This document shows, piece by piece, positions 4,467-61,753 of a stretch of DNA of 64,000 nucleotides. How positions within the stretch are numbered: the stretch's first letter is position 1; every line of letters begins with the position of its first letter. Source of the DNA: Patescibacteria group bacterium (GTDB lineage Bacteria > Patescibacteriota > Patescibacteriia > Patescibacteriales > WJLG01); contig JAQUPS010000005.1 of the NCBI GenBank assembly GCA_028716485.1, positions 3,666-67,665 of the forward strand, in the 5' to 3' direction. The position numbers and the translations under genes were made by a program. The notes beneath the pieces were generated by a model. The model did not search any database and had not been told where the DNA came from. It saw nothing but the letters and a program-made list of their open reading frames with translations.

Positions 4467-5099
4467 ATGATGCCAAGATTCAAGTCAATAACCGAGTATT
4501 ACAATCATGCCGCTGAGTATTATGATGACGCCATAGATGAGTTTAAGGTTAATACTCAGGCCATTTTCGAATTCGTGAACAGGTATTTTCATGATGAGTT
4601 AAGTGGAAGATTATTAGATGTTTGTTGCGGCACTGGCGATGCTTCCCGTCAATTCGCGCGACAGGGAATGAAGATATACGGGGTAGACAATTCTCCCGGG
4701 ATGCTCGAAGTATTCAAGCAAAAAAATTTTTCTGTTGATTCACGGCTTGTCGATGTCATGGAGAATGATTTACCCTATCAAAATCAATTTTTCGACATTG
4801 CTATTTCCAATGGGGCATTCTGCATAATCCCTTCGCTTGATAAAATAATATCCGAGGCGGGCAGAGTTTTGAAAAGCAGAGGAATCTTTTGCTTCTCGGC
4901 TGAAAATATCAACCGCCCGAGTCCGGCCATGTTCACGCGCTCAAATATGCAAATTTATCGGCATAGCGCGGAATATTTGGAGAAATTATTGGAAAAATCC
5001 GGTTTTAACTTGATTGACAGACTGAATTTTATTTATCAAGTAAGCGTCTTCGACGGTTCGATAACGATATTTACGGCCGTGCTGTGCCGAAAGAATTGA
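4467..5099 (+). CDS. class I SAM-dependent methyltransferase
   Basis: Motif I LLDVCCGTGDASRQF, followed by GVDNSPGML and FDIAISNGAF. Confidence 0.8.
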   Translation: MMPRFKSITEYYNHAAEYYDDAIDEFKVNTQAIFEFVNRYFHDELSGRLLDVCCGTGDASRQFARQGMKIYGVDNSPGMLEVFKQKNFSVDSRLVDVMENDLPYQNQFFDIAISNGAFCIIPSLDKIISEAGRVLKSRGIFCFSAENINRPSPAMFTRSNMQIYRHSAEYLEKLLEKSGFNLIDRLNFIYQVSVFDGSITIFTAVLCRKN

Positions 5100-5249
5100 T
5101 AAGTTAAGGGGTTAGACGAAAACGTCCGACCCTTTTTAAATCGAGCTAACTATCATTGACTGATTATCGAGTTTTGTTTATAGTATTACTAAATCAATGA
5201 AGGATTTTTTTAAATCGAAAATCAAAAATCACAATTCAAAAATAAAAAC

Positions 5250-45677: not shown

Positions 45678-45788
45678 AAAGTATTATATTTAATCTTATT
45701 AAAATTCAAATAATGTTAAATATTGTTTAATAAACTTATCTTGGCGATAAATTTAGCATTCATCATTTAGCATTTAGCATTGCCGGTT

Positions 45789-46262
45789 ATGCCCGACCAA
45801 ATCATTTCGCAAGAAGGCTTTAACAAGTTGCAGGAAGAACTGGATTTGCTGACCAATGTTAAAAGAAGAGAGATTGCCGATCGGATCGAGAAAGCGAAAG
45901 AACTGGGCGACTTAAGCGAGAACGCCGAGTATCATGAAGCAAAAGACGCGCAAGCTTTTAATGACGGCAGGATTATCGAGCTTTCGACCTTGTTAAAAAA
46001 TCTCACAGTAGTGGAAAGCGACGGCCATGGCAACGGCGATGGCAAGGCGGCGATGGGATCGAAGATAACGGTAAAAAATTTAAAAAACGGCGAAGAAAAA
46101 CAATACTCGATCGTCAGCTTTAACGAGGCGGATCCGGGGCAGGGGAAGATTTCCAACGAATCGCCGCTGGGCTTGGCCTTTTTGGGGCATCGCAAAGGAG
46201 ATGAAGTTGAAGTGACAACTCCCAGGGGCGAACTGAAATATAAAATATTACGGATTGAATAG
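45789..46262 (+). CDS. greA: transcription elongation factor GreA
   Basis: ELGDLSENAEYHEAKDAQAFNDGRIIEL and a C-terminal FKBP-like domain. Confidence 0.9.
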   Translation: MPDQIISQEGFNKLQEELDLLTNVKRREIADRIEKAKELGDLSENAEYHEAKDAQAFNDGRIIELSTLLKNLTVVESDGHGNGDGKAAMGSKITVKNLKNGEEKQYSIVSFNEADPGQGKISNESPLGLAFLGHRKGDEVEVTTPRGELKYKILRIE

Positions 46263-46333
46263 AAGATTGGTTTATTAGTGAATTAGTTGATTGGTTGACT
46301 GATTTTCCGACTACAATTATTCAAACAATAAAA

Positions 46334-46355
46334 ACGGGTATTTATCCGTTTTTTG
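46334..46355 (+). terminator. intrinsic terminator after greA
   Basis: ACGGGT-attt-ATCCGT followed by a T-run. Confidence 0.6.
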
Positions 46356-46510
46356 TTATTTAATATTAAGATAATATATACATTTTTTGTCAATATTGAC
46401 GTTTATTCGACGGTGTGATAAAAAGATTATGGGTATAGTTCTTCTATGCCCTTGTGCTGTAAGGGGGCCTGCCTAAGGCTCTCAAGTCTTCCTTGAAAGG
46501 AGGGAAGCCA

Positions 46511-46567
46511 ATGAAATACTGTTTCATGGCAACAGCGATTTTCCTTTTAATTCACGCCTTCCTATGA
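46511..46567 (+). CDS. 18-aa hydrophobic micro-ORF (MKYCFMATAIFLLIHAFL)
   Basis: AGGAGG (46498-46503) lies 7 nt upstream of the ATG. It is not in the ORF track because of its size. Coding status is unproven. Confidence 0.3.
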   Translation: MKYCFMATAIFLLIHAFL

Positions 46568-46969
46568 GCAAACAAATGCTTCGGCATCTTGCTCAGCAAT
46601 AAAGGATTTGGAGTGTTGGATAAATCGTCAACCCCGGATAAAACCGGGGGCGGGGAAGCGGGATGGCCGCGGAAGCGGCCAACCTCTATCTGTTTTTATT
46701 ACCGCTGGCGCGAACCGTCAGGATAAAAAAATAGTTCAAAAAATCAACCAAGCGCAAAAAAACAAAAAAATTTCAAAAATCACCAACACAAAAACCTTTC
46801 TCTCTCCCTCACACACTCGCTCTTTAAATTTATTTGTCCGATGGGTCTGACACGCCGCAACTCTTTTTTCCAATCACAACTCTTTTTTTCTCCTTCCCTC
46901 GCTCTTTCTACCCATCACATTTAAATTTTCATCATCCACCCCCATCCCTTCATTCTCCGTTTTTCCATC

Positions 46970-47003
46970 GCCCTCGGCTCATTTTTCCGAGGGCCTTTTT
47001 TTT
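46970..47003 (+). terminator. strong intrinsic terminator
   Basis: GCCCTCGG-ctcattttt-CCGAGGGC (8-bp stem) followed by C and T8. Confidence 0.8.
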
Positions 47004-47016
47004 ACTGCAAATACTA

Positions 47017-47036
47017 CCTACCTGCCGGCAGGCAGG
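47017..47036. repeat. CCTGCCGGCAGGCAGG-type palindrome, copy 3
   Basis: CCTACCTGCCGGCAGGCAGG. Homologous copies lie at 14982-15002 and 31427-31444. Confidence 0.7.
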
Positions 47037-47103
47037 CGAAAAAGGCATCCGAATATACTACGAATAAACATCGAAGCCGCCAGAGCCAAGGCCGCGCAAG
47101 GCT

Positions 47104-47132
47104 TTGACAATAAACTAAAAATGGCATAAAAT
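47104..47132 (+). promoter_or_regulatory. sigma70 promoter of lysS
   Basis: TTGACA, 17 nt, then TAAAAT. Confidence 0.65.
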
Positions 47133-47188
47133 TATCGTATAAATATCAGCCATTTCCCCTCGCGAGAGGAGAAGGATTTTTTGTTAAT

Positions 47189-48673
47189 ATGCCAAACAAT
47201 GAACAAAATAGCGAAGTCCGAAATCCGAACGAGAGAGAAGATCGCTTGAAGAAATTGGAAGAATTAAAAAAATCAGGCATCAATCCTTATCCGGACAAAA
47301 CAAGCCGATCCAATTCCATCGTCGATGTTTTGGCGCACTGGGAAGATTTAATGCCGGCCAATAAAACCCTGGTTATTACCGGTCGGGTTATGCTTAAGCG
47401 TGAATTCGGCAATTTGATTTTTGTCGAACTTTATGATGGCACGGGAAAGATCCAGTTGGCTTTTTCTAAAAAAGACATCGGCGCTGACGAATTTAAGAAA
47501 TTTACCAAGCTGATTGACCGCGGAGATTTTATCGAAGCGGCCGGCGCTTGTTTTATTACTCACAAAGGTGAAAAAAGCTTAATGGTTTCGGGTTGGAAAA
47601 TTTTGGCTAAAGCTCTCTTGCCTCTGCCGGAAAAATGGCACGGTTTGGAAAATGAGGATGAACGCTTTCGCCAAAGATATTTGGATCTGCTCGCTAATCC
47701 GGAAATTCATGATTTGTTCATCAAGAAAGCGAAATTTTGGGATACGGTGCGGCGCTTTATGCAGGATAAAGGATTTTTGGAAGTGGAAACTCCGACTTTG
47801 GAAACTACCACCGGCGGCGCCGAGGCCAATCCTTTCCGCACTCATCACGATGATTTTGACTTGGATGTTTATCTGCGGATTTCCATCGGCGAGCTTTGGC
47901 AAAAAAGATTGATGGCCGGCGGTTTTGACAAGACTTTCGAAATCGGCCGCGCTTACCGCAATGAAGGTTCTTCACCTGACCACACGCAAGAATTTACCAA
48001 TCTGGAATTCTATTGGGCTTATGCCAATTATGAAGACGGAATGGAAATTTCCCAAGAACTATATCAAAAAATCGCCCAAGACGTTTTCGGAACCACTAAA
48101 TTCAAAAGCAAGAATTATGAATATGATTTGGCGGGGGAGTGGCCGCGCGTTGAGTATTGCTCAAAAATAAAAGAAGAAACCGGAATAAATGTTTTAGAGG
48201 CGAGCGTCGATCAAATCAAAGAAAAATTAGCCGAATTAAACGTAAAATACGAAGGCGACAGCAAAGAACGCCTGATCGATACGCTCTGGAAATTCTGCCG
48301 GAAAAAAATCGTTGGTCCGGCCTTTGTAATCAATCATCCCAAGATCGTTTCACCTTTAGCCAAGGCCATTCCGGGCAATCCGGAACTTACCGAGCGTTTC
48401 CAAATTCTCATTGCCGGTTCGGAAATCGGCAATGGCTATTCGGAATTGAATGATCCATTGGAACAGCGCCAGCGTTTTGAAGAACAGCAAAAATTAATAG
48501 ATAGAGGCGATAAAGAAGCGATGATGCCGGATTGGGAATTCGTGGAAATGCTGGAGCACGGCATGCCTCCCACCTGCGGCTTCGGTTTTGGCGAGCGCCT
48601 CTTCGCTTTCTTAGCCGATAAGCCGATCCGCGAATGCCAATTATTTCCTCTAATGAAGCCAAAAATCAAGTAG
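47189..48673 (+). CDS. lysS: lysyl-tRNA synthetase, class II
   Basis: FRTHHDDFDLDVYLRISIGELWQKRLM, EIGRAYRNEGSSPDHTQEFTNLEFY, GFGFGERL. Confidence 0.93.
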   Translation: MPNNEQNSEVRNPNEREDRLKKLEELKKSGINPYPDKTSRSNSIVDVLAHWEDLMPANKTLVITGRVMLKREFGNLIFVELYDGTGKIQLAFSKKDIGADEFKKFTKLIDRGDFIEAAGACFITHKGEKSLMVSGWKILAKALLPLPEKWHGLENEDERFRQRYLDLLANPEIHDLFIKKAKFWDTVRRFMQDKGFLEVETPTLETTTGGAEANPFRTHHDDFDLDVYLRISIGELWQKRLMAGGFDKTFEIGRAYRNEGSSPDHTQEFTNLEFYWAYANYEDGMEISQELYQKIAQDVFGTTKFKSKNYEYDLAGEWPRVEYCSKIKEETGINVLEASVDQIKEKLAELNVKYEGDSKERLIDTLWKFCRKKIVGPAFVINHPKIVSPLAKAIPGNPELTERFQILIAGSEIGNGYSELNDPLEQRQRFEEQQKLIDRGDKEAMMPDWEFVEMLEHGMPPTCGFGFGERLFAFLADKPIRECQLFPLMKPKIK

Positions 48674-51712: not shown

Positions 51713-51734
51713 CATAAGTTAACCAAATAATCAT

Positions 51735-51893
51735 ATGAGCAATGAATCAACCGAAAAAATATTCAAATTTGTTTTTTTTCTCGCGGTGATTGTCTTCCTG
51801 ATCTTGGTTATCGGAATTTTTCTCCTACTGGTGAAGTTTTCGCTGAATTTCACTCCGGTGATCCATATTTTGGGCGTGACCATGACCAATTAG
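51735..51893 (+). CDS. small membrane protein, hypothetical (52 aa)
   Basis: MSNESTEKIFKFVFFLAVIVFLILVIGIFLLLVKF... Hand-translated; below the ORF-track cutoff. Confidence 0.35.
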   Translation: MSNESTEKIFKFVFFLAVIVFLILVIGIFLLLVKFSLNFTPVIHILGVTMTN

Positions 51894-52290
51894 CCGCCTA
51901 TCCTTAAAATTTTACCGAATTTGGGTGTTTGTGATACTCAAAAAGAAAAAACCTTTAAAATAGGCCAGTGCAGAGGTTTTTAGCTTAATTTAGTGCTAAT
52001 ATTAGCTATTTTATTAGTATTATGATCAATCAATCTGGCAATGATTAGCCGCCTTTTTAAAAAAAATTATTTATCGGCCGACAAGAGCGAGAAGTGAAAA
52101 AAATTTTGCCGTAAATAAAAAATAATTTTTAAAAAATAAATTTTTTTGGCATCAAATACAAGGGCAAGGAGAAGATGACAACAGAATGAACGATTTAACG
52201 AGAAACTTTAAAAGAGGCCTTTTGTTATAGCTACTACTTCGCTTAATCTACACTAATATAAGCCAAATACTTCTTTAAAAAGCCCCCTAC

Positions 52291-52322
52291 TTTTCACCCT
52301 TGATTTTATTGGGTGAAAAAAA
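52291..52322. terminator. bidirectional hairpin
   Basis: TTTTCACCC-ttgattttatt-GGGTGAAAAAAA. Confidence 0.55.
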
Positions 52323-52341
52323 TTAAACAATTAAGGCAAAA

Positions 52342-52369
52342 AGCTCGACGTAAAAGGTCGGGCTTTTTT
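52342..52369 (+). terminator. intrinsic terminator
   Basis: AGCTCGAC-gtaaaag-GTCGGGCT (8 bp, one G.T pair) followed by T6. Confidence 0.7.
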
Positions 52370-52392
52370 GTATCTCTTTAATTTGCATTAAA

Positions 52393-52417
52393 ACCCGGCC
52401 GAAAGGTCGGGTTTTTT
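52393..52417 (+). terminator. intrinsic terminator (GAAA tetraloop)
   Basis: ACCCGGCC-gaaa-GGTCGGGT followed by T6. Confidence 0.7.
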
Positions 52418-52460
52418 CGTATGTTCGACACATTAAATCAGTAATGTCAACGACAAAAAT

Positions 52461-52634
52461 ATGCAAAAAAACGATGTCTTCAACGGTAATTTTGGCATTA
52501 CCCCTGAGGGCAAGGAAGCAAGAAACGTTCCGATCATCTTCTTCACCGGCGAGGTGGAAGACGAGATCGATGCGGAGAGCGAACAGCACCGCCGCATGAC
52601 CAGCGAACCGGTCCCGGAAAACATTCCGGCTTAA
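52461..52634 (+). CDS. small acidic protein, hypothetical (57 aa)
   Basis: MQKNDVFNGNFGITPEGKEARNVPIIFFTGEVEDEIDAESEQHRRM... Hand-translated. Confidence 0.35.
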   Translation: MQKNDVFNGNFGITPEGKEARNVPIIFFTGEVEDEIDAESEQHRRMTSEPVPENIPA

Positions 52635-52652
52635 AAAATTAGCTAATACCCC

Positions 52653-53096
52653 ATGATTAGCCTCAAGCCAAATTCAACACAAGTACCCAATATCGTCATG
52701 GACGAATGGCTTCCGGATCTAAGCGATACGGAGTTGCGAATCATCTTGATCATCGCCCGCCAAACCACTGGCTGGGGAAAAGAAAGAGATTGGATAACTC
52801 GCCACCTGCTGGCAAAAAAAATAAACAGGGAAGTGAGAATCGTGACTCGAGCCGTCGGAAAATTGGTGAAGCTTGGAATAATTAAAACCTTCAACGAAAA
52901 AGGAATCGAGCTCATCACACCATCGTCTCGGCAGCGCCAAAAAATATACTACGAATTATCAGGTGAGGTTAGGCAAAAATCTTTGTTTGGCGGCGCAAAT
53001 TCAAAACTGTGGAAAAACTGTGCGCGTCAAGGGGATAAAGCGGCATCTGGTGCACTCCAGTTCACCAGCACCAAATGTCCCAATACAAATAAATGA
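52653..53096 (+). CDS. phage replication protein O N-terminal-like (wHTH)
   Basis: VPNIVMDEWLPDLSDTELRIILIIARQTTGWGKERDWITRHLLAKKI... matches the Rep-O N-domain pattern (L...ELRvll.i.R.T.GW.K..DwIs). Confidence 0.55.
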   Translation: MISLKPNSTQVPNIVMDEWLPDLSDTELRIILIIARQTTGWGKERDWITRHLLAKKINREVRIVTRAVGKLVKLGIIKTFNEKGIELITPSSRQRQKIYYELSGEVRQKSLFGGANSKLWKNCARQGDKAASGALQFTSTKCPNTNK

Positions 53097-53142
53097 AAAC
53101 TATTAAAGACAAGATTAATAATAGCTTTCAAAAAACAAAAAA

Positions 53143-53700
53143 ATGCCAATACAAAATTTTAAGCCACTCGTCTGCCAATGCTGCAATACCAAACTGACTT
53201 ACATCCTCCCAATCGACAAAGGATCAACTGATCTCCTAAAAGCAATCTCTATCGCAATACGAAAAAAGGGGATCAATGAAATTCATCTCCGGGACGAAAT
53301 GGAAGTCAGCCTTGATTTAAAAGGAAAAAACGCGAAAGACAGAGCGGCGATGATTCACCAAGCAAACATTAACGGCCATATCGTCAGCAACCAAACAGGA
53401 AATCTTAGCAGACCAAAGCGGCACGGATTAATCGCCCCCGTAGCCGGGGCGCAGGATGGCACCTACTGCCTGACACGCAAAGGAGCGGCATATCTCCGGG
53501 GAGATCGAATCCCAAAATACGCGATCATCGACAAAGTCAAAGGCAAGCAGGTCGGATACTTTGAAGAATCGACAGAAACCTGCACAGTCAATGATTTTCT
53601 CGATCCGGACTGCCCATACTGGGAGATGATCAACTTCGACGTCGTTGATAAAAAAATAATTCTGATCGTCGGTAACCACGTTCAAGCAAAGCTTTTATAA
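53143..53700 (+). CDS. hypothetical phage protein
   Basis: 185-aa ORF with an N-terminal CQCC pair. No family recognised. Confidence 0.45.
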   Translation: MPIQNFKPLVCQCCNTKLTYILPIDKGSTDLLKAISIAIRKKGINEIHLRDEMEVSLDLKGKNAKDRAAMIHQANINGHIVSNQTGNLSRPKRHGLIAPVAGAQDGTYCLTRKGAAYLRGDRIPKYAIIDKVKGKQVGYFEESTETCTVNDFLDPDCPYWEMINFDVVDKKIILIVGNHVQAKLL

Positions 53701-53761
53701 AAATTAAATCCAGCTCAAAAATTATTCCTCCCCATGGAAAATTCACGAGCTCCCCAAAGTT

Positions 53762-55054
53762 ATGACAATGCAACTTAGAAAGGCTGAGCGCAAGCAAGCA
53801 AAGCTTCGTATCAGCATGGCTGGGCCGTCCGGATCAGGCAAAACCTATTCCGCGCTACTCTTAGCCAGAGGCTTAACCGACAGCTGGGATAAAATCGCCC
53901 TGATCGATACAGAAAATAAGCGCGGCGACCTATACAGCCAGCTGGGCGATTACAACATCATCACCCTAGAAGCCCCATTCTCCCCGGAACGCTTCATCGA
54001 AGCGATTAAGTCCTGTGAGCTCGCCGGTATGGAAGTAATCATCATCGACAGCTCGTCGCACGAATGGGAGGGAGCGGGAGGATGCCTGGAGATCAACGAG
54101 AAACTTGCCCAGACCAAATTCAAAGGCAACACCTGGGCCGCCTGGAGCGATACCACTCCCCGGCACCAGAAATTCATCTCCGCTATAATTGCCTCCCCAT
54201 GCCACATCATCACGACGATGAGATCAAAGACCGACACGATTCAAACCGAGGACAAGAAGATCAAAAAAGTCGGCCTCAAAGAAATTCAGCGCGAAGGATT
54301 CGAATACGAGATGACCGTCAGCTTCAACATCGATCGCGAAACCCACTACGCGATGGTCGGCAAGGACAACACCCAGATCTTCAACGACGGAGAACCTTTT
54401 AAAATCGGCGTCGAGCACGGACAGAAGATTCGGACCTGGAACGAGGGAGGAAAGATAAACACTATCGAACAGAAGCGCGAGATCATGCGCCAGCTGGAAA
54501 GAATCGGATTGAACACCACCGACAAAGCGCAGATCGAAGCGGATATCACCGACCAAACCGGCCTGGCGCTCATCGAAAAGAATTATTCCGCGATCATCGA
54601 CAAATTAAAAACCATCAGACCGATTGAGGAGCAAATCGCTGCAGCTAAGCCTGCCGCTACAATCGAGCCGGACCCGGTTATTCCTCCCCAGGAAGAAGCC
54701 GGGGAGCCGGAGCCGACAGTTGAGCCGGAGAAGACCCAGGACGAACTAAAAGAAGAATTGGGGCTTAATACGCCCGCCGAGCCGACTGTCCCGGGAGATC
54801 CAGCCTTCAACGCCATTCTCACCGGCAACAAGTCAGAAAAAAAGCAGAGCAAGATGGGCGATGAAAAAAAAGCGGGAGCGGCAAAGATCTCGATCATCAG
54901 AAAATTAGCGCAGCAGAAACAGAACCTTGCTGATGATGCCGGCATTATTTCCTACATCGCTTTTATTCACAACATCGAGGTGGCAATCCTCGAAGATCTG
55001 ACGACCGGGCAGGCTGACAAGATCTGGAAAGACCTCGTCAACCAGAAAGTATAA
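53762..55054 (+). CDS. phage AAA/RecA-like ATPase (Sak4/AAA_24-like)
   Basis: Walker A MAGPSGSGKTYSAL and Walker B VIIIDSSSHEW, with a long acidic/proline-rich C-terminal extension. Confidence 0.7.
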   Translation: MTMQLRKAERKQAKLRISMAGPSGSGKTYSALLLARGLTDSWDKIALIDTENKRGDLYSQLGDYNIITLEAPFSPERFIEAIKSCELAGMEVIIIDSSSHEWEGAGGCLEINEKLAQTKFKGNTWAAWSDTTPRHQKFISAIIASPCHIITTMRSKTDTIQTEDKKIKKVGLKEIQREGFEYEMTVSFNIDRETHYAMVGKDNTQIFNDGEPFKIGVEHGQKIRTWNEGGKINTIEQKREIMRQLERIGLNTTDKAQIEADITDQTGLALIEKNYSAIIDKLKTIRPIEEQIAAAKPAATIEPDPVIPPQEEAGEPEPTVEPEKTQDELKEELGLNTPAEPTVPGDPAFNAILTGNKSEKKQSKMGDEKKAGAAKISIIRKLAQQKQNLADDAGIISYIAFIHNIEVAILEDLTTGQADKIWKDLVNQKV

Positions 55055-55097
55055 ACAGACTAAAATCGTTAAACATTAAACAAAAATAAAAAAAAAT

Positions 55098-55607
55098 ATG
55101 AATCAGCTTAGAAATTCAAAAGGCAGATTCGCAAAAAATAAAATATCTATTTGCTTTTTGATAATGATTTCGGTCATGACCATTATGGCCTGGGCCGGAA
55201 TGCAAGAATCTAAAAAATACACGCGCGCGATAGTTCAGGAACCGGAAAAAGTCGCCGTTGCGATGATCAATCACTTGCCGGCAAGCAGCAATGCGCCGGT
55301 CAAACAGATCATCGTCAATGTCGCCGGTAAGAGAAAATTCAAATACACCGATTATTTAGTCCGCTTGTCTTATTGTGAAAGTCGCTTCGACGTGACGAGG
55401 ACTAATGACAACGGAGAATTTGGAATCGACCGAGGACCTTTCCAGATCAATAATTTCTTTCACCCGGAAGTGAATGACAAGCAGGCCAGGGATGTGATAT
55501 TCGCCACCAACTGGACCATTGACATGATCAACGCGGGGAGGCAGCACGAATGGGCTTGCGACAAATTGATCAAGGGAAAGCTGAATTATATCGCGATGAA
55601 TAAATAA
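55098..55607 (+). CDS. lytic transglycosylase (SLT-domain) lysin with N-terminal signal-anchor
   Basis: TM helix ISICFLIMISVMTIMAWAG. Catalytic region LSYCESRFD...GIDRGPFQIN. Confidence 0.65.
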   Translation: MNQLRNSKGRFAKNKISICFLIMISVMTIMAWAGMQESKKYTRAIVQEPEKVAVAMINHLPASSNAPVKQIIVNVAGKRKFKYTDYLVRLSYCESRFDVTRTNDNGEFGIDRGPFQINNFFHPEVNDKQARDVIFATNWTIDMINAGRQHEWACDKLIKGKLNYIAMNK

Positions 55608-55684
55608 TTTTGGCCGGCGCTGCGGGGAGAATGAGATCGGGTAGCTGCAGCACGATCCCCGCCATCGCCGGCGAATTGAAAGAT

Positions 55685-56149
55685 ATGCAATTAAAAGATC
55701 AAGTCGTTTCCCTGGAACTGTCGAAGCGCTTTAAAAAATTAGGATTTAAGCGGGATAGTTTATTTGCTTATTACAGAAATGCTGGAATTTGGCACGACGC
55801 CATCGTTGATATGGGAATGTACAAAGACGTCGACGATGATTTTAAAGAAGCAAAATTACTTCCAGCCTATACCGTCGCTGAGTTAGCACAGATTATTCCG
55901 GACAAATTGGTTGACGGAAAATATCATTTTCACATCTACAGACTTCCCGAGTGGCTCAAAGAAAACGATTACAAAATGAAAGATGGCTGGGCGTGCGGAT
56001 ACGAAGTTTATGACTGGGATCAAATGTCTTGCCGCCATTACTGGGGAGGATGGTTTGTCTGGAAACATTCTGAAAAATTGGCAGATGCTATGGCTCTATT
56101 GCTTGAGTATCTGGCTAAAGTGAATTTAATTAACCCGGCCGAATTTTAG
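55685..56149 (+). CDS. hypothetical phage protein
   Basis: The ORF is taken from ATG 55685 (MQLKDQVVSLELSKRFKKLGF...). Confidence 0.45.
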   Translation: MQLKDQVVSLELSKRFKKLGFKRDSLFAYYRNAGIWHDAIVDMGMYKDVDDDFKEAKLLPAYTVAELAQIIPDKLVDGKYHFHIYRLPEWLKENDYKMKDGWACGYEVYDWDQMSCRHYWGGWFVWKHSEKLADAMALLLEYLAKVNLINPAEF

Positions 56150-56169
56150 AGCCGGATCATAACAAAAAT

Positions 56170-56301
56170 ATGGCTACGAAAATGACTGAGAAGAAAATCG
56201 CGAAAATTAAAGCGCTCAGAAAACAAAAATTGAGCGAGCGCGCTATCGCCAAGAAGGTCGGTTGCTCGCGCAGCGCGGTGAATTACCAGTTGAATAAGTA
56301 G
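56170..56301 (+). CDS. small HTH protein (43 aa)
   Basis: MATKMTEKKIAKIKALRKQKLSERAIAKKVGCSRSAVNYQLNK has a resolvase-type HTH pattern. Hand-translated. Confidence 0.45.
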   Translation: MATKMTEKKIAKIKALRKQKLSERAIAKKVGCSRSAVNYQLNK

Positions 56302-56509
56302 GTTATTACAATTTGAGGATTCCAAATTTGTGTCTGGCCCTTTACGGGGCCAGCAACAAGCCGAGAATCAAGGTGGTCATCAATCCGCAGCCCTCCTTCG
56401 GATAATTGATCAACCAAGCGCGCCGCGTAAGATCGGCAGCGCTGCCGCCGGGGTCGTCAGACAACAGCGTTCCTTGATCGGGCTTCTTAAAAATAATCGA
56501 TTCAAATAA

Positions 56510-56797
56510 ATGAGCGAGCAGACAGTTTACTGGAAGCGAAAATTTAACAAAGGCCGCCAGGCGATCAAAAAATTAAAGCAGGAAGGATTTGGAGAAATTT
56601 ATCAGATTGAAGAAGGATCCGGCTTTGATTTGCTCGCCATTAAGAACGACGAGATCAGACTGATCCGGATCGTCTGGGAAAATCCGGGCGATGCCTACAA
56701 CCAGGAAGAAGACGGCCCGGTCAAGAAAGAAATCTGGCATTTCCCGCACCGGGCGATGCAACCTAAAATCTTTGAACTTAACAAGGTAATTAAATAA
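56510..56797 (+). CDS. hypothetical phage protein (possible PD-(D/E)xK-like)
   Basis: 95 aa. GFDLLAIKNDEIRLIRIV is weakly reminiscent of endonuclease-fold proteins. Confidence 0.35.
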   Translation: MSEQTVYWKRKFNKGRQAIKKLKQEGFGEIYQIEEGSGFDLLAIKNDEIRLIRIVWENPGDAYNQEEDGPVKKEIWHFPHRAMQPKIFELNKVIK

Positions 56798-56815
56798 ATT
56801 TTAGTCCGGGCGATT

Positions 56816-58213
56816 TTGTCGCGCGAACTAAGCAACAAAGCTATGAAAACGCAAGAGCTTAAAAACATCGCGGTCGCTGATTGCTTCCTGTCGAAGACCA
56901 ATACGGCCGGCAGAAACAAGGGCACCGACTTTGACGAGCTGGTCGCCAGTGTCAAAGAAAAGGGCGTGCTCACTCCCATTCTGGTGCGTGCGAAAGAAGG
57001 AAAATCAAAACCGGCCTGGGAAGTTATTGCCGGCAATCGCCGCTGGGCTGCTGCCAAAGAGGCTGGCCTGAAAGAGATCCCGGCGCAGATTGTGGAAATG
57101 ACTGACGAAGAAGCGCGCGAAGCGCAGATCGTCGAGAATCTGCAGCGAGCCGATTTGCACCCGATTGATGAAGCTGAATTATTCGTGAAACTAGTCAAGA
57201 CAGCCGACGACTTTAAAGTGCTTGGCGCGAAGCTTGGAAAGAGCGAGGCATACATCCGCAACAGAATCATGCTTCTTAATTTGGCGGCTGAAGTTCAAAA
57301 GGCTTATCGGGATGGAAGTTTGAACGATGGCCACGCCTTGGAAATATCCAGGCTTACGCCGGGAGATGATCAGCATAAAGCTTTGAAGTATGTCCAGGAA
57401 AAGCAGAAGTGGGGAAAGGCGGTCAGCGTTAAGGATTTGAAAGAATTTATTGATCAAGAATTTTTTGACGAGCTGAAATTCCAGCCCTGGCTCAAGGACG
57501 AGGAAGCGATGAAAGCGGTCGGGGAGTGTATCGAATGCCCGAAGGACACTAACACTTTATTCGGCGAGGTCAAGGCAGGCGCTTGCACCACGATTAAATG
57601 CTATCGCCGCAAAATGAAGAAATACGTCGATTGGATGAAAGAGAAAACCCCGGGATTGGTTCTCGTGAGCTCCGGATACAATCCAAAGGCTGGAGTGCTG
57701 GGAGAGTTCGATTACGAGAAGGCGAAAAAATCGGATGCGAAAGTAAAATCAGCTTTAGTTGTTGATGGAAAAAATCGCGGCAAAATTATCAACGTCGTTA
57801 TCACTAAGATGCCGGTCAATCAAATGACGGCTGAAGAGAAAAAAGAACACGAAAAAGAACTGGAAAAACAGAGGATTGCCGACGAGAAGCGGGAGGCGGC
57901 CGAGAAAGAAAGAGAGGCGCGCAAAATGGAGGGCGCTTTGAAAAATATCACCTGGCCGATACAGGACAAGCACCTTAATTCCTTGGCAGAGATAGCGATC
58001 AGCCGCGCCGATAACGATGACATGACTGATATTGCGAAACGCTTAAAGCTTGAAGGCAAGTGCGATGAAGATGGGGAATTTGAAGACGTGGAAAAAGTTT
58101 TGCGCGGATACTGGGAGAAAGCGGGAGCGCAAGAAAAATTGAGGCTTATTTTTGAGCTCTTCCTCGGCACGCTGTGGGGAGATGCCAGAAATAAAGTCAT
58201 CAAGTCTTTATAA
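56816..58213 (+). CDS. ParB-like nuclease domain protein
   Basis: VIAGNRRWAAAKEAGLKEIPAQIVEMTDEEAREAQIVENLQRADLHPIDEA. Confidence 0.8.
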   Translation: MSRELSNKAMKTQELKNIAVADCFLSKTNTAGRNKGTDFDELVASVKEKGVLTPILVRAKEGKSKPAWEVIAGNRRWAAAKEAGLKEIPAQIVEMTDEEAREAQIVENLQRADLHPIDEAELFVKLVKTADDFKVLGAKLGKSEAYIRNRIMLLNLAAEVQKAYRDGSLNDGHALEISRLTPGDDQHKALKYVQEKQKWGKAVSVKDLKEFIDQEFFDELKFQPWLKDEEAMKAVGECIECPKDTNTLFGEVKAGACTTIKCYRRKMKKYVDWMKEKTPGLVLVSSGYNPKAGVLGEFDYEKAKKSDAKVKSALVVDGKNRGKIINVVITKMPVNQMTAEEKKEHEKELEKQRIADEKREAAEKEREARKMEGALKNITWPIQDKHLNSLAEIAISRADNDDMTDIAKRLKLEGKCDEDGEFEDVEKVLRGYWEKAGAQEKLRLIFELFLGTLWGDARNKVIKSL

Positions 58214-58230
58214 AATAATTTTGAACGACC

Positions 58231-58935
58231 ATGTTATCACTCAAAAATTTAATTTTCTTAGATACCGAAACTACTGGCAAGGAAAATGGCCGCCTGGTCC
58301 AGCTGGCGGTGATGAGATACGGCGCGGAAAAGCCGACAACTGAAAACTTTAAACCGGCCGAGCCGATCGGAATCGAAGCGATGGAAGTCCACGGCATCAC
58401 CAACGAAGAAGTCGCCGACCTTGGAATGTTCGAGGCAACCGAAGAAGCTAAAAAAGAGATCTTTAATTCCGTCATCGTCGCGCATAACGCAAAATTTGAT
58501 ATCGGCGTGCTCGCGCGCGAAGGCGTGACGGTCGATAAATACATCGACACGATGCGCGTCGCCCAGCACCTCATAGAGGCTCCTGCCTATCGTCTGCAGT
58601 ACTTGCGCCATTATCTGAAACTGAATGTGCCAAAGACTGCCGCGGCGCACGATGCCGGTGGCGATGTGCTGGCGCTAGTAGAGCTTTTTAAATATCTTTT
58701 CACTAGAACCACATGTAAAGGCAACGCGGGCGAGGAAATAGAAGATGCGGCGCTCAACGAAATGATCGCTTTGAGCCAGAAACCAGTCTTATTAAAAACC
58801 GTTCCGTTTGGAAAGCACAAAGACAAATCGTTCGCGGATGTTGCCCGGACCGATCGGAGTTATCTTGATTGGTTAATTAAACAACCGGACCTGAGCGAAG
58901 ATTTATCCTTCACTTTAAAACATTATTTAAAATAA
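58231..58935 (+). CDS. DEDDh 3'-5' exonuclease with DUF3820-like C-terminus
   Basis: ExoI FLDTETTG, ExoII VAHNAKFDIGVL, ExoIII AAAHDAGGDVLAL. The C-terminus reads GKHKDKSFADV..DRSYLDWL. Confidence 0.8.
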   Translation: MLSLKNLIFLDTETTGKENGRLVQLAVMRYGAEKPTTENFKPAEPIGIEAMEVHGITNEEVADLGMFEATEEAKKEIFNSVIVAHNAKFDIGVLAREGVTVDKYIDTMRVAQHLIEAPAYRLQYLRHYLKLNVPKTAAAHDAGGDVLALVELFKYLFTRTTCKGNAGEEIEDAALNEMIALSQKPVLLKTVPFGKHKDKSFADVARTDRSYLDWLIKQPDLSEDLSFTLKHYLK

Positions 58936-58950
58936 AAAACAAAAAACGCT

Positions 58951-59136
58951 ATGACGGCTCGAATCAGACCAACTGTGCCATATAACGGGATTTATCCTCA
59001 CCGGGAACACCGCTCACCCAAGGGTCGAGATAAGCAGTATCACAAGAAAAAATTTGAGGGCGGAGTGAAGCGGCAAAAAAAAGAAATCATCAAAGAGCTC
59101 GAGTGCGAAGAAGAGCTTAATAATCTTTTAAAATAA
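58951..59136 (+). CDS. small basic protein, hypothetical
   Basis: 61-aa ORF. Confidence 0.35.
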   Translation: MTARIRPTVPYNGIYPHREHRSPKGRDKQYHKKKFEGGVKRQKKEIIKELECEEELNNLLK

Positions 59137-59142
59137 AACGTC

Positions 59143-59605
59143 ATGAACGACCAAGAAAAAGTAGAGTATCTGGCGGGGCTTTTTCGGCAGCGCCAGGAAG
59201 TGGAAGACAAGATTAAGGCGGTTTTGTCCGGGGAAAAAATAAAGATTGTGGTGCCTCTTTCGCCGTCTCAGAAAGCGGCCAGAGCCCAAAAGGTTAAGGG
59301 GGGGGGGCTTAAAAGCAAAAAACGGTGAAGCGAAAATCTGCGACGAGTGCGGCAGGGAACTGAAGCCCGGCCAGTACCTCTGCCACGGATTATGCCCCGC
59401 TTGCTATCAGCGCAGTCGTAAAGGCGGCGGTAAACCCAGGAATAAGGCAACAATGGCCAAGCGGCACGCCCAGGAGCGAGGCGAGGAACGGCAGCGAGGC
59501 TTTAAATACGAATGCGTGGACTGCGGCGAAAAAATAACCAGTACGCTCGACATTGACGAGGTGAAATGCCCCAACAATGAAAATCATACGATGGTGCAGA
59601 AATAA
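59143..59605 (+). pseudogene. Zn-ribbon protein gene interrupted by frameshift at a G10 tract
   Basis: The frame-1 ORF 59143-59328 and the frame-2 ORF (to 59605; CDECGRELKPGQYLCHGLCPACYQR, YECVDCGEK...KCPNNENH) meet at GGGGGGGGGG (59298-59307). A G9 tract would fuse them. Confidence 0.6.
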
Positions 59606-59702
59606 TCAATAACCAAATTAATTTATAGCAAAGCAAGGTCAATTATTCGAGGTATACAATCGTGTCAGCCAGGCCAAAAAAGAAACAAAGGAGCTGAAAG
59701 CG

Positions 59703-59987
59703 ATGTATCGCGACGCTCTTAATAATTCCGGAAGCTATCAAAAAAAGGTGGAGGAAATTAAAAAGCTGCGCGATGAAAAGAAGCAAATTGAGTTAGGCGT
59801 CAAGGAAGAATTTGCCAGCGAGTTCGACAAGCTGGAAATTCTGAACAACGAAATCAAAAACGATCAGCAGCTTTTGTCAGACATCGTTATGAGCCAAGTA
59901 TCCAAGGGTGAAAAAATAGAGCTGGAAGATGAGTATGAGAATAAATTGGAGCCGATATTTTCGGTCAGATTTAAAAAAATTTCTTAA
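59703..59987 (+). CDS. coiled-coil hypothetical phage protein
   Basis: 94-aa K/E-rich ORF. Confidence 0.4.
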   Translation: MYRDALNNSGSYQKKVEEIKKLRDEKKQIELGVKEEFASEFDKLEILNNEIKNDQQLLSDIVMSQVSKGEKIELEDEYENKLEPIFSVRFKKIS

Positions 59988-60164
59988 TTAATTTATTTAT
60001 CTCTCATCCGATGCTCCTTGGTGTCACGAATCTCTAATGCTCTTCAATGGGCTGATCCCCATGCCGGCCCACGGATGCCATATGGCAGAGGATATTAAAG
60101 CATCCTGCATTAATCATCTTTTTTGTCATCGAGGGGCTCCGAATGAGAGATAATCAAAATTTTT

Positions 60165-60443
60165 ATGGACAAAGGTAAAAAAAAGGAGCTCACGCTTCAG
60201 GAAAAAATGACTATCGCCCTGACAAAAAATCCGATTAAACTCCCCACCAGCAAGGAGATGCTTGAGGAGATGATAGTAAGTTCTTTTAAGATCATTGAGA
60301 AAAATAAAACAGTGCTGGAATACGTCGAATCCCTGTTGGCTGAAAATCCGAAAGACAAGATGCGCTTTATCCAAAAGCAAGCAATCGCTGAAGAGATAAA
60401 AAGCGGCGAGCACCACTTGGCTTGGTTGCTCGATAGAATATAA
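60165..60443 (+). CDS. hypothetical phage protein
   Basis: 92-aa ORF. Confidence 0.4.
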   Translation: MDKGKKKELTLQEKMTIALTKNPIKLPTSKEMLEEMIVSSFKIIEKNKTVLEYVESLLAENPKDKMRFIQKQAIAEEIKSGEHHLAWLLDRI

Positions 60444-60464
60444 TTTTAAATTTTTCTGTAATTT

Positions 60465-61154
60465 ATGCGAAAAATACTATACGAATCTGGCCAAAAATTT
60501 AATCGTCTAACTTTTATAAAGGAACTTAAAGAAGTAAAGACGAAAAAAACCGCCTATCGTATGGCTTTGTGGGGTTGTGATTGCGGAAAAAAGGTAAAAC
60601 TAGTCTTGATGAATGTGGTGAGAGGATACACTAAAAGTTGTGGATGTTTTAATAGAGAATTGACAATTGCCAGAAATAAAAATTCGGCGATTCATGGAAT
60701 GACTAAAACTAGATTCTGGAAAATTTGGAGTGGAATAATTTATCGATGCGATCATGACCCCAAATATATTCCGCGTGGAGTATGTGAAAGATGGAGAATT
60801 TTTTTAAATTTTAAGTCTGACATGTACGATAGTTATATTAAACATTACGAAAAATTTGGGAAAAAAGATACTTCAATCGATCGTATAGATAATAGTCTGG
60901 GATATTCTAAAGAAAATTGTAGATGGGCGACACTCAAGGAGCAGTTAAATAATCGGGAAATCACCTTTATGATTGAATTTAGGGGAAAGCGAGAAAATTT
61001 AGAATACTGGTCTAAAAATACCGGAATAAAAAAAGAATTAATTTTTAAACGAATATGGGAACAAAAATGGCCAATAAAAAGGGCATTGGAAACGCCTTCG
61101 CTCAGACCTGCCCGACCGAATATCAAGATCAAGTTGCTCTCGTCCAATACTTAG
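60465..61154 (+). CDS. phage DNA-binding/nuclease-like protein (function unassigned)
   Basis: CDCGKK...CGC Zn-like pairs. GMTKTRFWKIWSGIIYRC...VCERW...SIDRIDNSLGYSKENCRWATLKEQLNNR is a conserved phage motif that I cannot assign securely. Confidence 0.4.
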   Translation: MRKILYESGQKFNRLTFIKELKEVKTKKTAYRMALWGCDCGKKVKLVLMNVVRGYTKSCGCFNRELTIARNKNSAIHGMTKTRFWKIWSGIIYRCDHDPKYIPRGVCERWRIFLNFKSDMYDSYIKHYEKFGKKDTSIDRIDNSLGYSKENCRWATLKEQLNNREITFMIEFRGKRENLEYWSKNTGIKKELIFKRIWEQKWPIKRALETPSLRPARPNIKIKLLSSNT

Positions 61155-61474
61155 AATTAAAAGGGCTCAAATTTTCAAAATTAGCCCAAGAAACATTCAC
61201 GAGAAGCTGGTCGACAAAGATGAAAAATAAGATGAGCGGACTACGAAAAGGAGTTCCGGACATGATGATAATCATTGAGCGTCCTGAATCAGAAAAAGCC
61301 GGTCCGCGAAATAATATCCTGCTTTTTATTGAGCTGAAAAGGAAAATCGGCGGTAAAGTGAGTCAGGAACAAGCCGATTGGATCAATGCGCTAAATAAAT
61401 GTTTTGGAGTCGTTGCTGTTGTTGCGCGTGGATTTGATCACGCCAAGGAAATTATCGATGCATATACTCAATAA
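61067..61474 (+). CDS. VRR-NUC domain nuclease
   Basis: GVPDMMIII...LLFIELKRKIGGKVSQEQADWINAL (PD-(D/E)xK core). Confidence 0.65.
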   Translation: MANKKGIGNAFAQTCPTEYQDQVALVQYLELKGLKFSKLAQETFTRSWSTKMKNKMSGLRKGVPDMMIIIERPESEKAGPRNNILLFIELKRKIGGKVSQEQADWINALNKCFGVVAVVARGFDHAKEIIDAYTQ

Positions 61475-61478
61475 ATTA

Positions 61479-61503
61479 AAAACCGGTTTTCCAGCCGGTT
61501 TTG
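61479..61503 (+). terminator. intrinsic terminator
   Basis: AACCGG-ttttccag-CCGGTT followed by TTG. Confidence 0.5.
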
Positions 61504-61574
61504 TGGGGGATGGTCCAATGGTAAGACGGAAGGTTTTGAGCCTTTTTATCTTGGTTCGAGTCCAAGTCTCCCAG
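61504..61574 (+). tRNA. tRNA-Gln(UUG), phage-borne
   Basis: Hand-folded 71 nt: acceptor TGGGGGA/TCTCCCA with U1-A72 and G73 (Gln identity features); anticodon arm GAAGG-TTTTGAG-CCTTT; T arm CTTGG-TTCGAGT-CCAAG. Confidence 0.8.
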
Positions 61575-61597
61575 CTTTAAAAATTAATTAAATTTTT

Positions 61598-61753
61598 ATG
61601 AGTGGAAAGTCAGAAAAAAAAGTCAGACAGTTAGTCAAAAGAGGTTACGGCGATATGGCGCGGCAGTTTTATGACCACCTCGACGAACGCCGGCCATTCA
61701 TCATCCCGAAATTTATCTGGCGGCCTTTCATTAAGTGGCTGATTTATCTTTAA
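61598..61753 (+). CDS. small hypothetical protein (51 aa)
   Basis: MSGKSEKKVRQLVKRGYGDMARQFYDHLDERRPFIIPKFIWRPFIKWLIYL. Hand-translated. Confidence 0.35.
   Translation: MSGKSEKKVRQLVKRGYGDMARQFYDHLDERRPFIIPKFIWRPFIKWLIYL

Follow-up and report, generated by a model that had tools for sequence, protein, structure and literature searches.

What is encoded by the 0.9-kb spacer that separates greA (45780-46262) from lysS (47189-48673), both genes named by Pfam, in contig JAQUPS010000005.1 of a Patescibacteria group bacterium? The question concerns positions 46263-47188 of a stretch of 64,000 nucleotides (nt), hereafter the window, in which a first-pass annotation made from the letters alone had seen no protein gene at this place. 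Indeed, the long open reading frames (ORFs) at 46608-46850 and 46834-47067 have no counterpart in relatives. Comparison with homologous loci suggests that the spacer is an undescribed and apparently self-contained RNA gene of ~570 nt, for which we infer a function. The reading favoured here, at a probability of roughly 0.5, is that the unit as a whole represents a new lineage-restricted dual-function RNA.

A promoter-to-terminator unit between greA and lysS

The greA-lysS gene order is widespread; most Patescibacteria have the pair almost contiguous or separated by other small genes. Units homologous to the spacer were found at the same junction in 13 other Falkowbacteria-type lineages, which gives 14 with the window: L001, L002 (the same as L071), L003, L004 and L005 were found first, and eight (L074, L077, L079, L081, L083, L085, L087 and L088) were added through a GreA protein search and contig look-ups. 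Identity between the window and its relatives at the four-fold degenerate sites of greA and lysS amounts to 36-54%; neutral sequence has thus nearly saturated, and selection acts on the conserved blocks of the unit. Relatives of its GreA assign the window to Candidatus Falkowbacteria, in the candidate phyla radiation (CPR)/Patescibacteria, and on the loci compared the RNA family is confined to one subclade of this group. The unit is syntenic and single-copy, with no paralogue in the 64-kb window, and no match to it was obtained in phage and plasmid collections (blastn) or in viral contigs (DNA-pattern search), the DNA-pattern search of metagenomes returning 3 true matches (copies of L002 and L003) and 12 chance matches. 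It is cleanly missing from close relatives: the greA-lysS gap measures 174 nt in a relative with 88% GreA identity and 159 nt in L075 (82% identity), where it contains only the greA terminator and the lysS promoter. In a rough neighbour-joining tree of GreA and LysS, lineages without the unit and lineages without its ORF are interspersed with complete ones.

The proposal of a promoter at TTGACG (46396) was borne out by the comparison. This -35 hexamer is followed after 14 nt by TGaTAAAAA, a layout that is (nearly) invariant across lineages; TGATAAAAA is invariant in 5 lineages, and an element of the TGnTAAnAA type is present in 14/14. In 11 of the 14 lineages, the promoter is embedded in the palindrome TGTCAATATTGAC(A/G); the pattern TGTCAA-N2-TTGAC is kept in the same number and occurs only once in the 64-kb window, and the palindrome might be an operator or a bidirectional -35. 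From the spacing, transcription is predicted to start near G46431. At the other end, the first-pass annotation had seen a strong terminator, and the 8-bp stem with its T8 run (46970-47003) stands, having been missed by a consensus terminator scan limited to 8-nt loops because its loop has 9 nt. The terminator is conserved in L001, L071, L074 and L077, and a different stem and U-run occupy the same place in L079, L083 and L088. Downstream, lysS has a conserved promoter of its own (47104-47132, 11/12 consensus matches) and a leader. The earlier view of the spacer as a gene-free, structured RNA with its own promoter and terminator is upheld by the comparison, and the initiation region of its ORF is predicted to be occluded.

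No known housekeeping RNA was recognised in the spacer. Rfam 15 gave no match in the window at gathering scores, chance-level matches only between 46200 and 47250 under permissive settings (E up to 10), and no match on the 13 homologous loci, the families left unmatched including tmRNA, RNase P, SRP, 6S, T-box, lysine riboswitch, RNAIII, OLE, ROOL and GOLLD, and ARAGORN found no tRNA or tmRNA in the spacer. With no match in Rfam 15 and no described counterpart found in the literature, the unit would be a new RNA family.

Several further observations concern the boundaries of the unit. A 15-nt direct repeat, ATTTTTTGT(C/T)AATAT, at 46382-46396 and 47176-47190, brackets the unit and the lysS promoter, one copy overlapping the palindrome and the other ending in the lysS ATG; similar pairs were seen by eye in L001, L003 and L074, and the repeat could mark the route by which the unit was gained or lost. 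Palindromes of the form TGTCAA-N(3-4)-TTGAC lie at the promoters of lysS (L027 4981-4996, L030 2246-2261) and serS (L032 4864-4878) in relatives without the unit, which hints at an operator or promoter architecture shared by these genes. In L004 (5199-5570, minus strand) and L087 (746-1249, minus strand), a gene for a multi-pass membrane protein lies divergently ~70 nt from the palindromic promoter of the unit; their products are homologous, with 32% identity over 107 aa (E 2e-13), and have no match in Pfam, and the gene could be an ancestral partner of the unit whose transcription started from a bidirectional promoter. No copy of this gene was found in the window or in the other loci.

A folded core retained where the ORF start is lost

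The GC-richer, structured segment noted previously was recovered in the composition profile (46431-46737) and corresponds to a core of ~300 nt with about nine helices. The + strand folds better than shuffled sequences (z -4.2), and the advantage is smaller for the minus strand (z -2.4). When RNAalifold was applied to the 14 cores as aligned by MAFFT, most helices were missed, the stems being out of register, and a covariance-model realignment of the 3' module, hand-curated stems and duplex-energy permutation tests were used instead.

The 110-nt 3' module (H5, the G-rich linker, H6 and H7) measures 106-116 nt in 14/14 lineages. Covariance model R1, built for this module, scored 58-113 bits in all 14 lineages, its best other match in ~500 kb of related DNA being at chance level (22.8 bits, E 0.006). 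In the R1-based alignment, 80% of the cells are paired, versus 37-53% when the partners are slid by 1-3 columns, and the covariation score is 0.139 versus at most 0.077; none of 500 shuffles reached the observed values. Both sides have changed at 8 pairs. The tip helix of H7 is 96% paired, with an A-U/G-C/G-U exchange at pair 4, the H6 stem is kept by the variants GACCGC/GCGGUC (L085) and GCUGCCC/GGGCAGC (L088), and compensatory changes were seen in H1, H5 and H7 when the stems were curated by hand.

Two further helices join distant strands. For the long-range helix P-LR, cognate strands pair better than non-cognate ones across a hand alignment, with 38 of 20000 permutations doing as well in duplex energy (Table 2); the corresponding figure for P4 is 103 of 20000. 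The pyrimidine strand of P-LR pairs with the linker as well as or better than with the Shine-Dalgarno (SD) sequence of the micro-ORF, the duplex energy of CUUCCUUG being -10.9 kcal/mol for the linker pairing, compared with -9.7 kcal/mol for the SD pairing. The nucleotides of the P4 5' strand are kept even in lineages without the ORF. Other parts vary: H2 is found in the window, L001 and L071, is larger in L003, L004 and L081, and is absent in five lineages, and the hairpin with a UUCG loop (H4), which folds as the first-pass annotation had drawn it (46566-46594), is replaced in relatives by a hairpin of unrelated sequence at the same position. A 5'-3' closing helix (GUGCUGU with ACAGUUC) was also considered and dropped, since L083 keeps AGUUC without the 5' motif.

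In L001, L077 and L079, the module made of the SD and the AUG hairpin has been excised and every flanking helix has been kept, and in L085 the ORF start has been lost by a different route. The promoter and the RNA helices are retained in all four of these lineages, in which the terminator is also intact. The first-pass annotation had set against its own proposal a micro-ORF that is not conserved where the stems are, and part of this pattern was found, the start being lost in 4/14 lineages and the ORF shortened in the window, with the stems compensated. Taken together, the sequence comparisons indicate that the unit is conserved from promoter to terminator and that its RNA structure is under selection, including where the ORF start has been removed.

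Table 1. Features of the unit in the window, in order of position
Feature	Position	Strand	Basis or remark
Palindrome TGTCAATATTGACG with -35 hexamer TTGACG (46396-46401)	46388..46401	+	Invariant in the first five lineages
Extended -10 element TGaTAAAAA	46416..46424	+	17 nt after the -35
H1, 5'-terminal hairpin GGGUAUAG-UUCUU-CUAUGCCC	46431..46451	+	Folding; compensatory changes at four pair positions
Single-stranded motif UUGUGCUGU	46452..46460	+	Invariant in the first five lineages; 11/14 overall
H2, variable hairpin	46463..46483	+	Folding prediction
P-LR 5' strand CUUCCUUG	46488..46495	+	Long-range helix; alternative pairing with the SD
SD AAGGAGGG	46497..46504	+	AGGAGG at 46498-46503, 7 nt before the ATG
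Start-codon hairpin, AUG paired with codons 5-6 (UCAUG)	46507..46530	+	Local minimum-energy fold
Micro-ORF MKYCFMATAIFLLIHAFL, 18 aa	46511..46567	+	ATG 46511 to TGA 46567
P4 5' strand	46553..46563	+	Overlaps last codons ..H-A-F-L (P-F/L-L in relatives); pairs with 46603-46615
H4, UUCG-loop hairpin	46566..46594	+	Overlaps the stop codon; folding prediction
P4 3' strand AGGAUUUGGAGUG	46603..46615	+	
H5, hairpin CCCCGG-AUAAAA-CCGGGG	46632..46649	+	First hairpin of the universal 3' module; compensatory inner pairs
G-rich linker CGGGGAAG, P-LR 3' strand	46651..46658	+	Duplex energies, permutation test
H6, hairpin UGGCCGC-GGAA-GCGGCCA, GNRA loop	46664..46681	+	
H7, long interrupted A-U-rich hairpin: CUG-UUUUU ... 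CUGGCG-loop-CGUCAG ... AAAAA-UAG	46690..46734	+	Folding
G-depleted, structure-free tail, A-rich then C/U-rich	46738..46969	+	5.6% G, 33% C over 232 nt
Intrinsic terminator GCCCUCGG, 9-nt loop, CCGAGGGC, C, U8	46970..47003	+	8-bp GC-rich stem 46970-77/46987-94

A hydrophobic ORF with an occluded start

The SD-preceded, hydrophobic micro-ORF of 18 amino acids (aa) described by the first-pass annotation has homologous ORFs in 9 other lineages, of 25-30 aa in all except L005 (59 aa). It stops at the position of a D or E in the relatives and does not have their conserved proline; by sequence comparison, it is a shortened homologue of the 25-30-aa hydrophobic peptide ORF. The peptides (Table 2) share a basic N-terminus and a grand average of hydropathy (GRAVY) of 1.5-1.9, with the exception of L005 (0.42 overall and 2.27 over the first 20 residues). 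No match for them was found in Pfam or NCBIfam, and the 59-aa ORF of L005 matched only itself among 5.8 billion proteins. The SD lies 6-8 nt before the AUG in 10/10 ORF-bearing lineages, and local minimum-energy folds (-4.5 to -13.5 kcal/mol) place the AUG in a helix in 9 of them.

Codon positions behave differently in the two subclades compared. Among L003, L004 and L081, the differences at first, second and third positions are 6/2/11, 9/5/15 and 8/5/15, each pair has 7-8 codons whose changes are purely synonymous, and it is in this subclade only that the alignments carry a coding signature of the ORF. Among the window, L074 and L071, the corresponding figures are 8/4/7, 8/5/6 and 8/4/6, with 1-2 synonymous codons per pair, which indicates a probable relaxation of constraint, or a constraint on hydrophobicity only.

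Table 2. Strands of P-LR and peptides encoded by the micro-ORF, by lineage
Lineage	P-LR 5' strand	P-LR linker strand	Peptide
Window	CUUCCUUG	CGGGGAAG	MKYCFMATAIFLLIHAFL
L074	CUUCCUUG	CGGGGAAG	MKVIFIATTVILAWPFLEAIIIRILCV
L001	CUUCCUUG	CGGGGAAG	
L077	CUUCCUUG	CGGGGAAG	
L071	CUUCCCUG	CAGGGAAG	MRVIFIAAAFILVRPFLEIIIISVLDAIH
L083	CUUCCUG (one nt shorter)	CGGGAAG (one nt shorter)	MKTILAGMIILFGWSLLGTVMHWISACAAY
L085	CUUUCCA	UGGGAAG	
L081	AUUUCCC	GGGGAAU	MKKFFITTMLIVFMPLLDVILSLRLTIIFK
L004	UUCUUCC	GGAAGAA	MKLFTATMLILFMPFLDALLNLRIVIK
L087	CCCCC	GGGGG	MKKFSEIIGFILMSPFLAMAMQLLK
L088	GUCGUC	GGCGGC	MKYAIVVIFLMPTFLAILNLLKLPF
L003			MRILIATMLVLFMPLLDTILNLRIVIK
L005			59 aa

A long tail depleted in G

A recount of 46741-46970 confirmed the depletion reported earlier, with 14 G in 230 nt (77 C, 74 T and 65 A). 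No 230-nt window of the 64 kb has fewer than 13 G (the minimum lies at 46723), against a first percentile of 32 and a median of 54, and none is equally poor in C on the other strand; the tract region is the G-poorest of the 64 kb. The predicted folding energy of the tail in the window is -0.06 kcal/mol per nt, versus -0.25 +/- 0.05 for random segments of the window, and values of 0.00 to -0.06 are predicted for the strongly G-poor tails. Across the family, the G content of the tail is 1-7% in 9/14 lineages and 8-16% in the rest, the genomic value being ~23%, and 10 of the 13 complete loci have a tail of 225-262 nt. Composition and length are conserved, but the sequence, terminator excepted, is not. 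In ~590 kb of related DNA, equally G-poor and C-rich tracts were found in these tails only. The tail of L088 is built of two units repeated in tandem, AAAACAACAAC with 6 copies and TTCCTTCTTCCACTC with 10.

The first-pass annotation had read the tail as rich in anti-SD words. CCUCC-like words are, however, not above the expectation from composition, and there is no exact CCTCC in the tail. The complementarity of CTTCCCTC (46893-46900) to the SD region does exist, but that part of the tail is not conserved, and the conserved partner of the CUUCC strand is not in the tail but in the linker at 46651-58, 160 nt downstream.

In composition, the tail of the window resembles a Rho utilization (rut) site, being C-rich (C to G, 77 to 14), G-poor, unstructured, untranslated and at least ~80 nt long. 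Rho needs roughly 80 nt, and the tail is much longer. It differs from rut sites in that it ends at a strong intrinsic terminator and in that it is A-rich rather than C-rich in some lineages. No rho gene was found among the window ORFs scanned with Pfam, and nothing usable on Rho, Hfq or structured RNAs in Patescibacteria was found in the literature.

A dual-function RNA as the favoured reading

Under the reading preferred here, an RNA of ~570 nt would be transcribed independently from a near-consensus sigma-70 extended -10 promoter set inside the palindrome. Its core would consist of H1, of P-LR enclosing the ORF region, of P4 and H4, and of the universal H5-H6-H7 module, with the hydrophobic peptide ORF threaded through it and the SD and AUG forming a separable module. 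A tail of ~230 nt predicted to be unable to fold would follow, and then the intrinsic terminator, which would insulate lysS. The core probably has a function of its own, because it is kept, with compensatory changes, where the initiation region of the ORF has been excised or degraded. Where the ORF is intact, the transcript would be both coding and non-coding, and translation may be held back by the AUG hairpin, with a possible toggle in which the SD and the G-rich linker compete for the CUUCC strand. In the subclade of the window, the peptide would be relaxed or decaying (18 aa, no third-position excess) and the RNA drifting towards an RNA-only state. In what is the weakest step, the tail might be a spacer or a single-stranded platform on which, for example, Rho, S1 or some other protein that binds single-stranded RNA could land.

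Several points weigh against this reading. The unit is absent from close relatives and its losses are interspersed in the tree, and it is therefore dispensable, like accessory or selfish loci. The set of 14 lineages is small and the tree approximate. "Dual function" may not apply to the window itself, whose subclade lacks the coding signature. The start site, the 3' end and any processing of the RNA are predicted from the sequence. The permutations of P-LR and P4 depend on a hand alignment in which relatedness is not fully controlled, and they count as supporting evidence, not as proof. The tails of L004 and L083 are rich in A instead of C, and the G depletion is only mild in L003, L004 and L005. 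Finally, the complement of the single-stranded motif UUGUGCUGU, which would mark a target in trans, occurs nowhere else in the 64-kb window, and no target or binding partner was identified.

Alternative readings

A variant that gives the tail the leading part is a tentative possibility. It takes the unit as a new large CPR RNA class of two parts, an RNA-functional core and a length-conserved, single-stranded and G-free tail of ~240 nt acting as a multivalent platform or sponge for a factor such as Rho, S1, a cold-shock protein or a KH-domain protein; the toxin-like ORF would have been lost repeatedly, in a transition from mRNA to non-coding RNA that would still be in progress.

A type I toxin-antitoxin locus, or a solitary toxic membrane peptide, encoded by a structured, silent mRNA with an unseen antitoxin RNA or 3' processing, is unlikely and is considered less likely than a dual-function RNA. 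The first-pass annotation had drawn this likeness from a short hydrophobic peptide with a strong SD inside a structured RNA, which stands, and from cis anti-SD sequences in the tail, which are not supported; a conserved antisense promoter that would complete it was not found inside the unit. The unit resembles loci such as tisB/istR-1, hok/sok and aapA1/isoA1 in many respects: hydrophobic peptides of <60 aa (18-30 aa here, with a basic N-terminus and GRAVY 1.5-1.9), a strong promoter, a highly structured mRNA with an occluded initiation region (the AUG is paired, and the alternative pairing could occlude the SD), long-range pairing (P-LR encloses the initiation region) and ready decay, reflected here in a patchy distribution, repeated loss and a decaying ORF. 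Antitoxins of tisB/istR-type loci are divergently encoded, and the palindrome creates a divergent promoter-like site in 4 of the first six lineages. Nevertheless, the region upstream of the palindrome is not conserved, the divergent transcript would in the window cover the greA terminator only, and no positionally conserved minus-strand promoter was found inside the unit in six lineages. In contrast to toxin loci, no antitoxin RNA was found for the unit, although one encoded in trans elsewhere in the genome is conceivable. The unit is single-copy at one syntenic site and has no counterpart in the plasmid, phage or viral collections, the peptide belongs to no toxin family in Pfam or NCBIfam, and the helices and promoter outlast the removal of the toxin start.

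An ordinary gene for a small membrane protein, whose helices would serve mRNA stability or translation control and a 3' untranslated region (UTR), and whose ORF-less copies would be pseudogenes, is a similarly improbable account. The coding signature in L003, L004 and L081, the SD kept at 6-8 nt from the AUG, the loss of the whole unit in close relatives and the unrelated small membrane-protein genes at the greA-lysS junction of other Patescibacteria are what such a gene would lead one to expect. However, the best-conserved part is the 110-nt module downstream of the ORF and not the ORF itself, and in three lineages the deletion takes the SD and AUG module and spares every flanking helix. Promoter and terminator are intact in the ORF-less lineages, and a dead locus should not retain structure because neutral sites are near saturation. 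Moreover, a length-conserved, G-free 3' UTR of 230 nt has no obvious role for a 27-aa protein.

The reverse proposal, a purely non-coding RNA whose ORF is untranslated in every lineage and conserved through RNA structure, is given little weight. The ORF codons do overlap the AUG hairpin, P4 and H4, there is no third-position excess in the subclade of the window, and the ORF has been lost repeatedly; yet a strong, correctly spaced SD and an AUG are kept in ten lineages, differences among L003, L004 and L081 are ~3-5 fold more numerous at third than at second positions, with the 7-8 synonymous codons per pair already mentioned, and hydrophobicity and a basic N-terminus are maintained throughout.

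Lastly, a cis-regulatory lysS leader (attenuator, riboswitch or T-box-like element), suggested by the position of a structured RNA with a terminator directly upstream of lysS on the same strand, is very improbable, as the terminator is strong and conserved, lysS has its own conserved promoter and leader downstream of it, close relatives without the unit have their own lysS promoter region right after the greA terminator, and no T-box, L-box or other Rfam family matches.

Comparison with known RNAs

The closest functional analogue of the proposed dual-function RNA would be RNAIII of Staphylococcus aureus, together with other dual-function small RNAs (sRNAs). RNAIII has 514 nt, 14 stem-loops and, in its 5' part, the ORF of a 26-aa membrane-active peptide whose translation is delayed by structure (PMC12310071). 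Both would be long RNAs with their own promoter and terminator and a small, structure-restrained peptide ORF inside 5' stem-loops. By contrast, there is no homology of sequence or structure between them, no Rfam match and no quorum-sensing context at the unit; no base-pairing target was found for the unit by the motif search within the window, and RNAIII carries C-rich motifs in hairpin loops, where the unit has an unstructured, G-free tail of 230 nt. The persistence of the unit RNA where the ORF has been lost also has a parallel, some staphylococcal RNAIII homologues being without hld. It also separates the unit from type I toxin loci, as its RNA is conserved after the loss of the toxin start.

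Like OLE, ROOL, GOLLD and raiA, the unit is a long, multi-helix and lineage-restricted RNA recognised through covariation, but it has no homology to them, has a facultative ORF and an unstructured tail, and is much narrower in distribution. OLE is partnered with a membrane protein gene, and the divergent, homologous multi-pass membrane protein genes beside the promoter of the unit in L004 and L087 recall this arrangement. The sponge sRNAs CrcZ (A-rich motifs) and CsrB (GGA motifs) share with the tails of the unit a low-complexity, single-stranded character, most visible in the tandem arrays of L088. Unlike in these sRNAs, no motif of the tail is conserved between lineages, only composition and length.

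Other features of the junction and of the window

Between the terminator and lysS, the window has a palindrome, CCTGCCGGCAGG, at ~47020-47033 and a GC(A/G)AATAC motif common to L001, L071 and L074. The block TATAAATATYAGC lies after the lysS -10, and a purine-rich run resembling an SD, ~15 nt upstream of the ATG, falls within a hairpin in the lysS leader (47150-47175).

In other Patescibacteria, the greA-lysS gap holds unrelated small membrane-protein genes (L027, L032, L043 and L044) or, in L042, what by eye resembles a DNA methylase gene and a second gene, perhaps a restriction-modification pair, and the junction seems to be a hotspot for small accessory genes. GC-rich short repeats, TTGTCATTGCGAGCGA...GCAATCTC and GTCATCCTGAGC...GTCGAAGGAT, lie at the same junction in more distant relatives (L017 at about 4530-4700, L044 at about 4830-5200 and L045 at about 1715-1770) and resemble miniature inverted-repeat elements. 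In L004, greA and the unit are separated by the insertion of an IS200-like Y1 transposase gene (4569-5033, minus strand; PF01797, E 5.5e-29).

Elsewhere in the window, 51713-61600 holds a mobile-element-like cluster with Phage_rep_O, AAA_24, ParB and RNase_T-type exonuclease domains and several ORFs without a Pfam match; it ends near a tRNA-Gln at 61504 and includes two long gene-poor gaps (51713-52652 and 59606-60464).

Significance

Genomes of CPR/Patescibacteria are ~1 Mb in size and tightly packed. Because these genomes are so small and dense, a non-coding unit of 0.9 kb that is conserved and has a near-consensus promoter is unlikely to be idle. Few large structured RNAs are known. The unit also flags a family of small peptides that gene callers miss. 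If the reading proposed here is correct, the lineages with a full ORF, with a shortened ORF and with an excised initiation module would form a natural series in which the coding and non-coding roles of one RNA are testable, and the combination of a folded core with a length-conserved, structure-free and G-depleted tail might reveal a new means by which factors that bind single-stranded RNA are recruited.

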